Below are positions 17,492 through 57,509 of a stretch of 64,000 bases of DNA, piece after piece (the first letter of the stretch is position 1; each line of letters opens with the position of its first letter). The translations under genes and the position numbers were made by a program. Below the pieces are notes generated by a model. That model made no database searches and had not been told where the DNA came from. It saw nothing but the letters and a program-made list of their open reading frames with translations. The DNA comes from Escherichia coli. Its GTDB lineage: Bacteria > Pseudomonadota > Gammaproteobacteria > Enterobacterales > Enterobacteriaceae. The stretch lies in NCBI RefSeq assembly GCF_003334815.1, contig NZ_QOWO01000007.1. One strand, written 5' to 3'.

Positions 17492-17500
17492 GCAGAAAGT

Positions 17501-17528
17501 CAAAAGCCTCCGACCGGAGGCTTTTGAC
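17501..17528. terminator. bidirectional terminator between tonB and yciA
   Basis: hairpin gcctccg-ac-cggaggc flanked by caaaa and ttttga. Confidence 0.8.
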
Positions 17529-17530
17529 TA

Positions 17531-30428: not shown

Positions 30429-32324
30429 ATGGCAGGGAAGTTTCGCTGCATTTTGCTGTTGATAGCAGGGCTGTTTGTATCATCTCTAAGTTATGCAGAA
30501 AACACGGAGATCCCTTCTTATGAAGAAGGGATCTCGCTCTTTGATGTTGAAGCCACTCTGCAACCAGATGGGGTGCTCGACATCAAAGAAAATATTCATT
30601 TTCAGGCGCGAAATCAGCAGATTAAGCACGGCTTTTATCGTGATTTACCACGACTATGGATGCAGCCTGATGGGGACGCTGCACTGCTGAACTATCATAT
30701 TGTTGGCGTCACCCGTGATGGTATTCCTGAACCCTGGCATCTTGACTGGCATATCGGGTTAATGAGTATTGTCGTGGGCGATAAACAACGTTTCTTGCCT
30801 CAAGGCGACTATCATTATCAAATTCATTATCAGGTTAAAAATGCTTTCCTGCGTGAGGGGGATTCTGATCTGCTAATCTGGAACGTGACCGGTAACCACT
30901 GGCCGTTTGAAATTTATAAGACCCGTTTTTCTCTCCAGTTCTCTAATATTGCGGGTAATCCATTTAGCGAAATCGATCTCTTTACCGGAGAAGAGGGCGA
31001 CACATATCGTAATGGCCGCATCCTTGAGGACGGAAGAATTGAATCCCGCGATCCGTTTTATCGTGAAGATTTCACGGTCCTCTACCGCTGGCCTCACGCT
31101 TTACTTAGCAATGCCTCGGCTCCGCAAACGACGAATATTTTCAGCCATCTTCTTTTACCCTCCACGTCATCGTTGTTAATTTGGTTTCCGTGTCTGTTCC
31201 TGGTTTGTGGATGGTTATATCTCTGGAAGCGCAGGCCGCAATTTACGCCGGTAGATGTGATTGAAACCGATGTCATTCCGCCAGATTACACGCCCGGCAT
31301 GTTACGTCTCGATGCGAAGCTAGTTTACGACGATAAAGGTTTTTGTGCCGATATCGTAAATCTGATTGTGAAAGGAAAAATTCATCTGGAAGATCAGTCT
31401 GACAAGAACCAGCAAATCCTGATTCGTGTTAATGAAGGCGCGACCAGAAATAATGCGGTATTACTGCCCGCAGAGCAGTTATTACTGGAAGCGTTATTTC
31501 GTAAAGGCGATAAGGTCGTTCTTACGGGGAGACGCAACAGAGTCTTACGCAGGGCATTTTTACGGATGCAGAAATTTTATCTGCCGCGTAAAAAGTCTTC
31601 GTTTTACCGGTCTGATACTTTTTTGCAATGGGGTGGACTGGCAATATTGGCGGTCATTCTTTACGGTAACTTGAGTCCTGTAGGCTGGGCAGGAATGAGT
31701 CTGGTGGGCGATATGTTTATTATGATCTGCTGGATTATTCCTTTTTTATTTTGTTCCCTTGAGCTTTTGTTTGCCCGCGATGATGACAAGCCTTGCGTTA
31801 ATCGTGTAATCATCACTTTGTTTTTACCACTGATTTGTTCAGGCGTGGCCTTCTATTCTCTCTACATCAATGTCGGAGATGTATTCTTTTACTGGTATAT
31901 GCCAGCGGGTTATTTTACCGCTGTTTGCCTGACCGGTTATCTCACTGGCATGGGGTATATTTTTCTGCCAAAGTTTACCCAAACTGGACAGCAACGTTAT
32001 GCCCACGGTGAAGCTATCGTTAACTATCTTGCGCGTAAAGAGGCAGCAACACACAGTGGACGTCGGCGGAAAGGGGAAACACGGAAACTGGATTACGCGT
32101 TGCTAGGTTGGGCTATATCGGCAAATTTGGGGAGGGAATGGGCGTTACGCATTGCCCCTTCGCTTTCTTCGGCGATTCGCGCTCCAGAGATTGCCCGTAA
32201 CGGCGTTTTATTCTCATTACAGACGCACCTAAGTTGCGGGGCCAATACCAGTTTGTTGGGGCGAAGTTATTCCGGTGGTGGTGCTGGCGGCGGCGCGGGT
32301 GGCGGAGGCGGTGGTGGCTGGTAA
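30429..32324 (+). CDS. yciQ: DUF2207 inner membrane protein, function unknown
   Basis: 631-aa ORF with signal/anchor, several TM helices and Gly-rich C-terminus. Confidence 0.8.
   Translation: MAGKFRCILLLIAGLFVSSLSYAENTEIPSYEEGISLFDVEATLQPDGVLDIKENIHFQARNQQIKHGFYRDLPRLWMQPDGDAALLNYHIVGVTRDGIPEPWHLDWHIGLMSIVVGDKQRFLPQGDYHYQIHYQVKNAFLREGDSDLLIWNVTGNHWPFEIYKTRFSLQFSNIAGNPFSEIDLFTGEEGDTYRNGRILEDGRIESRDPFYREDFTVLYRWPHALLSNASAPQTTNIFSHLLLPSTSSLLIWFPCLFLVCGWLYLWKRRPQFTPVDVIETDVIPPDYTPGMLRLDAKLVYDDKGFCADIVNLIVKGKIHLEDQSDKNQQILIRVNEGATRNNAVLLPAEQLLLEALFRKGDKVVLTGRRNRVLRRAFLRMQKFYLPRKKSSFYRSDTFLQWGGLAILAVILYGNLSPVGWAGMSLVGDMFIMICWIIPFLFCSLELLFARDDDKPCVNRVIITLFLPLICSGVAFYSLYINVGDVFFYWYMPAGYFTAVCLTGYLTGMGYIFLPKFTQTGQQRYAHGEAIVNYLARKEAATHSGRRRKGETRKLDYALLGWAISANLGREWALRIAPSLSSAIRAPEIARNGVLFSLQTHLSCGANTSLLGRSYSGGGAGGGAGGGGGGGW
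32271..32321 (+). repeat. glycine-codon microsatellite at yciQ 3' end
   Basis: ggtggtggtgctggcggcggcgcgggtggcggaggcggtggtggc encoding GGGAGGGAGGGGGGG. Confidence 0.9.
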
Positions 32325-32534
32325 TTAAGCTGATGTTAATCGAAACAAGCTTTAACCATAAAGATAGTGTAGTATGTTGCGCCTCAAAGCCAGGCCGATA
32401 AACGTCGAGTCGTTTACTTAAGGCCTGAAGAGTTCAAACAGACTTTACTATCAGTGAGTCAGATGTAAGTTCTGACTCACTGTTGCACAAAAGCATATCA
32501 GACGCCTGGGAAGGCGACACCAAAAGGAAGCTCT

Positions 32535-33410
32535 ATGAGCGAAAAGCTACAGAAAGTGCTGGCGCGTGCCGGCCACGGTTCTCGCCGTGAAATCGAATCT
32601 ATTATTGAAGCCGGTCGTGTGAGTGTTGATGGCAAAATTGCTAAACTCGGCGATCGTGTTGAAGTTACCCCTGGATTGAAAATCCGTATCGATGGTCACC
32701 TGATTTCGGTACGTGAGTCCGCTGAACAAATTTGTCGCGTTCTGGCCTATTACAAACCGGAAGGTGAGTTGTGTACCCGTAACGATCCGGAAGGACGTCC
32801 AACGGTGTTTGACCGTCTGCCAAAACTGCGTGGCGCACGCTGGATTGCCGTGGGTCGCTTGGACGTTAATACCTGTGGTCTGCTGCTGTTCACCACCGAT
32901 GGTGAACTGGCAAACCGTTTAATGCACCCAAGCCGTGAAGTTGAACGTGAATATGCCGTGCGTGTATTTGGTCAGGTTGACGACGCGAAACTGCGTGATT
33001 TGAGTCGTGGCGTGCAGTTGGAAGATGGTCCGGCAGCTTTTAAAACCATCAAGTTCAGCGGCGGCGAAGGGATCAACCAGTGGTACAACGTGACTCTGAC
33101 CGAAGGCCGTAACCGTGAAGTTCGTCGTCTGTGGGAAGCGGTTGGTGTGCAGGTGAGCCGCCTGATCCGTGTTCGTTACGGTGATATCCCACTGCCAAAA
33201 GGTCTGCCACGCGGTGGCTGGACGGAGCTGGACCTCGCCCAGACTAACTATCTGCGCGAACTGGTGGAGCTACCGCCAGAAACCAGCTCTAAAGTCGCTG
33301 TAGAAAAAGACCGTCGTCGCATGAAGGCGAATCAGATTCGTCGTGCGGTGAAACGTCACAGTCAGGTGAGCGGCGGTCGTCGTTCTGGCGGACGTAATAA
33401 TAACGGTTAA
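32535..33410 (+). CDS. rluB: 23S rRNA pseudouridine synthase B
   Basis: 291 aa; S4 domain followed by RsuA-type catalytic domain, basic C-tail. Confidence 0.93.
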
Positions 33411-44195: not shown

Positions 44196-44232
44196 TTTGC
44201 TTGCCGGTTATTTTGCTTCCGGCAAGCAAATG
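44196..44232. terminator. hairpin terminator between acnA and ribA
   Basis: ttgcttgccgg-ttattttgc-ttccggcaagcaa. Confidence 0.65.
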
Positions 44233-48670: not shown

Positions 48671-48700
48671 AAAAAGCCACGGATATATCCGTGGCTTTCG
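48671..48700. terminator. hairpin terminator between yciH and osmB
   Basis: agccacggatatatccgtggct flanked by aaaaa and tttcg. Confidence 0.75.
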
Positions 48701-49011: not shown

Positions 49012-49279
49012 AATACTCTCTCCTGAATTTATGATTCACGGAAGTAAGCTCTCTATAACTATAATAGCTAAGAATAAGCCTGGTGAAATTATTCCGTGAA
49101 ATCTGCTCGCGCGCAGGGTTATATCACGCAGGTGATAATGACTTCCTGTTATATCGCTGATAATAATTTTATATCTTGAGAGTGTTAATAACAGGTAAAT
49201 AGTCTTAATTATCAACCAGGAATCATCTTAGAGCGGATGATTTGCCAAACTGCAAATCATCCGTAGAGAAGGGAAATGG

Positions 49280-57442: not shown

Positions 57443-57509
57443 CTCATTCTGACAAGATTTAATCTTTTGTCAGAATGAGGTGAATAATCTGGAAGGAGGA
57501 TTCAGAAAA

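Follow-up and report, generated by a model that had tools for sequence, protein, structure and literature searches.

The stable hairpin between yciQ and rluB of Escherichia coli K-12 is probably a relic of a mobile element without a dedicated role for rluB, and we put the probability of this reading at about 0.7. According to our proposal, elements that encode a 555-amino-acid tyrosine integrase would insert into a 16-bp core located just upstream of the ribosome-binding site (RBS) of rluB. Such an insertion would cut rluB off from its prior upstream DNA, and from then on the integrase end of the element would adjoin rluB. In relatives the hairpin lies in the attachment arm of these elements, and the hairpin in the window (the whole stretch of 64,000 nucleotides of E. 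coli DNA that was analysed) would, judged by sequence comparison, belong to the same class. Its most likely present state is that of a passive stem-loop in any plus-strand RNA that would cross the yciQ-rluB spacer; a modest structural or stabilising role in an element-derived rluB leader is possible.

The hairpin in the yciQ-rluB spacer

The genes are ordered yciO, yciQ, hairpin and rluB, followed by cobO and yciK on the other strand (Table 1). A sequence-only reading of this DNA had described a perfect 11-bp inverted repeat in front of rluB. The sequence agrees with that description, and one additional A-T pair extends the stem to 12 bp, with arms that are 100% complementary. From the end of the stem to the rluB start codon (ATG at 32535) there are 52 nt, beginning with the tail TTGCACAAAAG / UUGCACAAAAG, which has no U-run. 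Over the yciQ-rluB spacer the window does not differ from E. coli K-12 MG1655; coordinates were converted as MG1655 = window + 1294317, set by the 3' end of the rluB terminator at MG1655 1327761.

Table 1. Coordinates of the features around the hairpin in the window
Feature	Position	Strand	Remarks
yciQ	30429..32324	+	DUF2207 protein of 631 aa; G+C content somewhat below that of the neighbours
Putative integrase remnant	32359..32383	-	Codons ~18-27 (RGRTYYT region); 25 nt, 92% identical to the integrase of E. coli H15, E = 4e-5 (small search)
Hairpin 5' arm, CAGTGAGTCAGA	32452..32463	+	12 nt; homologue of CAGTGAGTTA, the arm on the integrase side in living elements
Hairpin loop, TGTAAGT	32464..32470	+	7 nt; 11-18 nt in living elements
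Hairpin 3' arm, TCTGACTCACTG	32471..32482	+	12 nt; in relatives the arm plus T-run is a minus-strand IHF-consensus site, a consensus lost in K-12
Putative relic integrase promoter, extended -10-like TGATATGCT	32492..32500	-	Sequence reading
Attachment core, GACGCCTGGGAAGGCG	32501..32516	+	5-bp stem CGCCU/AGGCG with GNRA cap (GGGA here, GUGA elsewhere)
rluB	32524..33410	+	RBS AAGGAAG at 32524-32530; coding sequence 32535-33410

Folded as RNA, the K-12-type hairpin reaches -21.4 kcal/mol, compared to -10.7 +/- 2.7 kcal/mol for 200 shuffled sequences (z = -4.0, none of the 200 as good), and it comes to about -20 kcal/mol whichever strand is folded. When the whole spacer is folded, it remains an independent helix and no coaxial extension is predicted. 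The hairpin pattern has a single match in the 64-kb window, with 0 expected. A first-order Markov simulation predicts 0.05 perfect 12-bp repeats with loops of 3-12 nt per 64 kb, whereas the window contains six perfect 12-bp short-loop hairpins (seven at >=11 bp), so the occurrence of this class of hairpin in the window is not random. The five further perfect inverted repeats of at least 11 bp with short loops (17498-17529, 44196-44230, 48673-48698, 49234-49263 and 57444-57478; expected, 0.05-0.25) are probably terminators. Inside the yciQ coding region there is also a perfect 13-bp palindrome with a 3-nt loop (GAGATCCCTTCTT ATG AAGAAGGGATCTC), located 5'-proximally at 30507-30519 / 30523-30535.

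The Rfam 15 covariance models gave no relevant match in the window, even at E <= 10, and no match at the gathering score among nine related loci. Two other explanations were dropped. A start-stop mini-ORF, ATGTAA in the hairpin loop, is not conserved even in the sister Escherichia locus L004, and a REP-like or otherwise repeated element does not fit a hairpin that is single copy per genome (median, one place).

Among 5426 complete E. coli genomes, 3977 contain the hairpin, as a single copy with rare second places in a few records, and it is absent from about 27%. The 3978 hairpin records comprise 2644 alleles of the K-12 form, 1037 with C32480T, which converts a stem G-C pair to G-U, 108 with the loop change G32469A, and about 189 others, 188 of which have one difference and one of which has two. 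The stem is therefore fully paired, by Watson-Crick pairs or with one G-U, in at least 3789 of the 3978 alleles.

Elements inserted in front of rluB

An 18-nt element, GACGCCTG(T/G)GAAGGCGAC in DNA and GACGCCUG(U/G)GAAGGCGAC in RNA, directly precedes the rluB RBS (window 32501-32518). This pattern was found in 90 of the 91 rluB loci that we compared (L001-L091, from Escherichia to Yersinia), and its sole variable letter is the N of the GNRA loop. The 16-bp form of the core is GACGCCTG(T/G)GAAGGCG. In E. coli H15, an 8.3-kb island is inserted between yciO and rluB and is flanked by a perfect 16-bp direct repeat, GACGCCTGTGAAGGCG, at L088 13390-13405 and 21728-21743. The left repeat (attL) follows an intact compact leader of the type found in genomes without yciQ, and the right repeat (attR) precedes rluB, with the hairpin at attR. 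The island encodes a YagK/YfjJ protein, a DUF4238 protein, a resolvase-type recombinase, a hypothetical protein and the integrase. E. coli A17 shows the same layout with a 9.1-kb island and direct-repeat flanks, and the repeat at the ends of both intact islands reads GACGCCTGTGAAGGC(G). The GNRA hairpin is thus the attachment core of this integrase family. A crossover in the loop of the larger hairpin was considered and dropped, as the direct repeats of H15 and A17 are the GNRA sequence; no second copy of the larger hairpin was found at the left ends of the islands. The window contains only one copy of the core.

Two further E. coli strains carry elements at the same place. In BA92, a phage-like element with the same integrase and hairpin adjoins rluB. 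In 2017-03-3CC, a K-12-type relic (yciQ, hairpin and core) is directly followed by a new element, which has a related integrase (N-terminus RGNTYYINFRL) in the opposite orientation. The rluB core is used in H15/EC93/EcWJ, A17, BA92 and 2017-03-3CC (intervals L088 13390-21743, L091 12578-21710, L089 8674-10441 and L090 8988-10728), and the elements seen there comprise islands of 8-9 kb, a single phage-like element and another element type that is oppositely oriented. Their cargo includes DUF4238 and YagK/YfjJ proteins, a resolvase-type recombinase and a RelA/SpoT-domain protein.

The integrase is a 555-aa tyrosine recombinase (phrog_1 match, E = 4e-31; Pfam Phage_integrase). It had no match in the phage collection, and a phage origin was dropped for this reason. 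The integrase or a remnant of it is present in 12 sampled loci, intact in two (L037 and L052) and as remnants in 10; intact copies are also present in E. coli H15, A17 and BA92. N-terminal remnants or the full-length gene adjoin the hairpin in 11 sampled species, where they start about 18 nt from the 5' arm (L018, L023-L026, L037, L048, L052, L063, L069 and L076), and a C-terminal remnant lies elsewhere in L053. Read on the opposite strand, the conserved block TTGTTTGCCATGCTGTGTACCAT just ahead of the 5' arm gives MVHSMANN, the start of the integrase. When the element end from the integrase to the rluB side was used as a query, 17 E. coli genomes matched, 10 of them only over the last 34-94 nt next to rluB. 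The integrase gene itself was matched in 7 of 5426 E. coli genomes, in 4 of them over nearly the full length.

Empty sites are also found. Of the 4918 E. coli genomes with a match to the rluB region, about 940 are homologous only from window position 32501 onwards; in these, yciQ and the hairpin are both absent, and yciO and rluB are separated by 103 nt. E. albertii, Citrobacter and Enterobacter likewise have a compact spacer of about 100 nt that ends at the same core. The sequence-only reading had taken the hairpin for an element of the rluB leader. Its absence, together with yciQ, from these E. coli genomes and from the species with compact spacers argues against this assignment, and so does its place in the integrase-proximal arm. 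For comparison we sampled rluB loci from 80 other Enterobacterales species. None of the 80 has yciQ, the distance between yciO and rluB ranges from 89 nt to more than 3 kb, and the cargo between them differs by species (a type VI Hcp protein, a BglG-like regulator, a hydrolase and others). On the basis of its co-occurrence with the hairpin, yciQ is probably cargo of a decayed element. A reading of yciQ as a defence gene was dropped, as PADLOC and NCBIfam gave no match.

The compact spacers without yciQ have features of their own. In L001 (2935-3000) and in the Citrobacter and Enterobacter loci L005-L022, a conserved motif, CTATACT-ACGCGGCC, precedes the core, and it is followed by a G+C-rich hairpin with a U-rich tail, the stem of which varies between genera with full compensation. 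This hairpin looks like a terminator of yciO and/or an attenuator in the rluB leader, and the order of promoter and terminator is puzzling.

The inverted repeat in living elements

We aligned 23 homologous inverted repeats, which occupy a fixed position ahead of the invariant core in Escherichia, Enterobacter, Kosakonia, Leclercia, Cedecea, Shimwellia, Pseudocitrobacter, Pluralibacter, Erwinia and Yersinia. Counted by species, related hairpins occur in about 20 Enterobacterales other than E. coli. The family consensus is CAGTGAGTTA, 11-18 nt, TAACTCATTG, then usually TTTTTGAAAGTATACCA, and in relatives UUUUUG follows the stem, unlike in K-12. In the alignment 88% of the cells are paired, compared to 33-48% when the partners are slid, and changes on both sides occur at 9 of the 12 pairs; the observed values were reached in none of 500 shuffles. 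RNAalifold independently predicts the same helix, and on the plus strand there are many G-U pairs and almost no A-C pairs. The sister Escherichia locus L004 has three further double changes, covering six arm positions, and a new loop, and its stem is still perfect with almost unchanged flanks. The earlier proposal had been staked on conservation of the stem with compensatory changes in other Enterobacteriaceae, and the stem does recur in other Enterobacterales with such compensation. The same covariation pattern can also be produced by palindrome homogenisation or by an inverted repeat that acts at the DNA level.

A DNA-level role is suggested by the occurrence of sites for IHF. Of 85 loci, 21 have a perfect match to the IHF consensus, WATCAANNNNTTR, which is a degenerate one. 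The match is on the minus strand in every case, and its distance upstream from the core is 26-40 nt, in most cases 27 or 37; shuffled sequences gave 0.57 such loci on average (maximum, 4). Its four N positions vary between loci and its specified letters are kept, which is the signature of a protein site and not of a helix. The candidate IHF site consists of the 3' arm of the hairpin plus the T-run, and many hairpin-bearing loci have it with one mismatch. Perfect consensus sites are also present 17-27 bp from the core on the other arm of the H15 island and on the arm of the 2017-03-3CC element. IHF sites in the arms are the classical layout of attP. In the window, the arms differ from the consensus at 2 (plus strand) and 4 (minus strand) specified positions.

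A different arrangement was seen in L016, L031-L034, L044, L046, L053, L054, L062, L064, L065, L077, L078 and L082, where a near-consensus promoter (GTTACA, 17 nt, TATAAT) starts 50-64 nt upstream of the core and is in most cases followed by a perfect IHF-consensus site. The Serratia loci L057-L061 have the same type of promoter at 71-80 nt, with a varying first hexamer. The GTTACA/TATAAT loci may represent the other arm of an oppositely inserted element, giving rluB a strong outward promoter.

On the minus strand, the living elements carry an extended -10 sequence, TGGTATACT or TGATATACT, 1 nt from the core and facing the integrase, which would be the integrase promoter. Moreover, at the start of the integrase gene (31 codons; L037 2806-2899 on the minus strand, and homologues), positions with an invariant amino acid use on average 1.41 distinct codons, compared to 2.24 further into the gene (p = 1e-5). 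This suppression of synonymous change indicates that the whole element end is constrained at the DNA level. As RNA, the repeats of living elements are weak (H15, -5.9 kcal/mol, z = -0.5; BA92, -8.0 kcal/mol, z = -1.1), which favours a DNA-level role there, and a terminator scan of the living E. coli element ends flagged none. In living elements the inverted repeat is therefore most likely a DNA feature of the attachment arm and/or of the integrase promoter region, as far as the sequences can tell. Reading toward rluB, the proposed order of such an element end would be the integrase (minus strand), about 18 nt, CAGTGAGTTA-N15-TAACTC(A/G)TTG, the T-run, the minus-strand extended -10, the core and rluB. 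The 3' arm with the T-run would be an IHF-type bend site, and the 5' arm would be an inverted near-copy of it.

Proposed decay of the element in the K-12 lineage

In the window, the integrase remnant listed in Table 1 is one of two patches shared with the integrase end of the H15 element. The second, collinear patch runs from about 32444 through the hairpin to the core, and the middle of the spacer does not align; a tblastn search for the integrase found no match in the window. The relic status draws on these two short patches, on their collinearity and on the hairpin itself. Read on the plus strand, the integrase patch contains the -10-like TAGTAT with a G+C-rich stretch behind it. Part of it, GTGTAGTATGTGCGCC, persists in a dozen or more loci that are otherwise without the integrase, including the window (32367-32383). 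The surviving patch could be a candidate outward promoter for rluB, or it could contain arm-type sites of the integrase. We had also considered GTGTAGTATGTGCGCC as a conserved rluB promoter, and this was set aside because the sequence is antisense to integrase codons 18-25, so that it is kept as a candidate outward promoter only.

Comparison of the K-12 arms with those of BA92 shows five differences, all of which improve the pairing: one double change from T-A to C-G, one change from G-U to G-C, one from U-G to U-A, and two new pairs, with a loop that has shrunk to 7 nt from the 15 nt of BA92. These changes went along with the loss of the IHF letters and of the U-run. Both relic hairpins, those of K-12 and L004, have perfect stems, and their stability is far above that of the living copies. 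According to the proposed history, the K-12 lineage would have lost the integrase and would have deleted attL together with the older leader. The leftovers would be yciQ, two integrase patches, the palindrome, the relic promoter and the attR core, and the palindrome would have had its pairing perfected and extended while the IHF letters and the U-run disappeared. The perfected pairing could be the result of selection for an RNA stem, or equally of palindrome homogenisation by template switching. Taken together, the covariation and the perfect relics suggest selection on an RNA stem, and the word passive may therefore be wrong for the relic hairpin.

A possible role of the relic hairpin as RNA

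The strongest rival to a relic without a dedicated role holds that the hairpin works as an RNA stem-loop in the 5' leader of rluB: a leader derived from the element would have taken the place of an older one, and the stem would be kept by selection. We consider this tentative, and clearly less probable than the relic reading, with which it overlaps as far as the origin of the hairpin is concerned. The stem-loop might protect the transcript against exonucleases or RNase E, allow the GNRA hairpin and the RBS to fold undisturbed, or act as a weak attenuator in the relatives with a U-run. The covariation with the independently predicted RNAalifold helix speaks for such a role. The abundance of plus-strand G-U pairs over A-C pairs does so as well, but a dominance of G-U can also be explained when one arm matches the IHF consensus and the other does not. 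That all five differences between K-12 and BA92 improve the pairing while the IHF letters went, and that at least 3789 of the 3978 E. coli alleles are fully paired, also fits selection on the stem; double changes in a palindrome can, however, come from template switching without selection. Decayed loci that lack this particular hairpin (L036, L040 and L051) have another strong one in its place, and in the compact "type A" leaders and in those of Serratia the core is likewise immediately preceded by a strong hairpin. On the other hand, the hairpin is only weak in living elements, and about 27% of the E. coli genomes live without it, about 940 of them with the compact spacer that lacks yciQ. Moreover, no sigma-70-type promoter was found upstream of the hairpin, either in the K-12 spacer or at the ends of the living elements.

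The accessible parts of the supplements of Kim 2012, Ettwiller 2016 and the SMRT-Cappable-seq study contain no entry for the rluB/yciQ region, and our literature search on rluB in combination with yciQ, RNase III or a transcription start returned nothing relevant.

The core loosely resembles helix 93 of 23S rRNA, which has a GUGA tetraloop and, in its 3' strand, the RluB target U2605. The 47-nt sequence used for the helix-93 region was confirmed as 23S rRNA. It is conceivable, and in our view doubtful, that the core is an RluB-binding operator that mimics helix 93 and that its functional invariance makes it a safe landing site for the integrase, the perfected K-12 hairpin being a selected replacement of the displaced leader hairpin. 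If this were true, K-12 rluB would be run by a domesticated mobile-element end. The sequence-only reading had mentioned autoregulation as well, and autoregulation by RluB through the stem of the larger hairpin received no support in this analysis.

Other conceivable roles in termination, binding and processing

The hairpin might instead mark the 3' end of an rnm-yciO-yciQ transcript, as a terminator without U-run or as a barrier to 3' exonucleases after Rho-dependent termination; this appears distinctly unlikely. It is the first very stable stem-loop past the yciQ stop codon, 128 nt downstream, and in relatives a T-run follows the stem, but K-12 has no U-run. Rho is active nearby: among the Term-seq data of Adams et al. 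2021 (PMC7815308) there is a bicyclomycin-sensitive, i.e., Rho-dependent, site inside yciQ (MG1655 1325258, plus strand; window 30941), which bears on this alternative, and a second one lies at MG1655 1326939 on the minus strand (window 32622), antisense to the 5' part of rluB. These Rho-dependent sites are consistent with yciQ being foreign, poorly translated DNA. The tables of the same study list no 3' end at MG1655 1326500-1326899 among those given (PMC7815308), and yciQ is probably poorly expressed. In the living elements the divergent integrase lies upstream, so that no plus-strand transcript would need termination. The earlier judgement that the hairpin is not an intrinsic terminator holds up, given the missing U-run, a terminator scan that did not flag the K-12 hairpin, and the lack of a 3' end in that interval among the ends listed in PMC7815308.

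A present-day DNA operator in K-12, bound by IHF or by another dimeric regulator and acting on rluB or on the relic minus-strand promoter, is very unlikely. The perfect dyad symmetry, the descent from IHF-type sites and the position just downstream of the minus-strand extended -10-like TGATATGCT would fit an operator. Against it, the K-12 arms have lost specified IHF positions (2 and 4 of them, as given above), L004 has stayed palindromic despite six changed arm positions, which is unlike a conserved operator, and no matching regulator motif was recognised. The suggestion of the sequence-only reading that the hairpin is a protein-binding site applies in a different sense only: the arms of relatives carry the IHF consensus, and K-12 has lost it.

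Least probable of all is a processing site for RNase III or another double-strand-specific enzyme in the rluB leader, a role that had also been put forward from the sequence. A perfect duplex in the putative 5' untranslated region of a ribosome-biogenesis gene would suit it, but the known sites of RNase III in E. coli extend over roughly two turns of helix (about 20 bp), the 12-bp stem makes up about one turn and falls far below this, and the living homologues are weak, A+U-rich stems of 10 bp with 15-nt loops and z values near zero.

Significance and comparison with known systems

A relic of a mobile element in front of rluB accounts for the variable yciO-rluB spacer among enterobacteria and for yciQ being an accessory gene. 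The sequences directly upstream of rluB in K-12 would derive from a mobile element, the yciQ-rluB spacer being a domesticated end of it, and a specific 16-bp integration site is identified in the leader of an rRNA pseudouridine synthase gene. Our literature search found no paper that ties rluB to an integrase in enterobacteria. There is also a practical side, as yciQ is in wide use as a "neutral" chromosomal integration site for strain engineering. Constructs placed at yciQ adjoin, from upstream, the sole sequences that are available for driving rluB.

The hairpin does not have the features that define intrinsic terminators, RNase III sites, IHF sites (in K-12) or any Rfam family. With intrinsic terminators and with the stabilising hairpin at the 5' end of ompA it shares the position of a stable, independent stem-loop in an intergenic region or leader; unlike terminators, it has neither a U-run nor a mapped 3' end. 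The element ends resemble the attP sites of the lambda and P4 type in having a short core and arms with IHF-consensus sites a few tens of base pairs away. P4 has its integrase gene and the promoter of that gene right next to the attachment site. The integrase at the rluB site differs in that it is not present in any record of the phage collection, no arm-type sites of the integrase were recognised, and the two IHF-like sequences form an inverted repeat, which to our knowledge is not a described feature of the arms of lambda or P4 attP.

The dusA-associated genomic islands are similar in that, in many genera, a dedicated integrase family is directed to the 5' region of a single conserved gene for RNA modification, with variable cargo and decayed remnants at one hotspot. 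The target gene, here rluB, and the core are different, and the 2017-03-3CC element suggests that the rluB core is used in both orientations. SXT/R391 integrative conjugative elements insert into the 5' end of prfC. The likeness is that a tyrosine-integrase element sits at the 5' end of a conserved translation-related gene with its integrase beside the junction, and that the element end must supply the upstream sequences of the target gene. At rluB, in contrast, the core lies in a GNRA hairpin of the untranslated leader before the RBS, so that insertion does not replace any coding sequence. The 555-aa integrase is another protein, the islands of 8-9 kb showed no genes for conjugation, and the replacement promoter is a candidate only. 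The hairpin itself is ordinary, and its context is a modest further example of a 5'-end integration site, set in an invariant GNRA leader hairpin.
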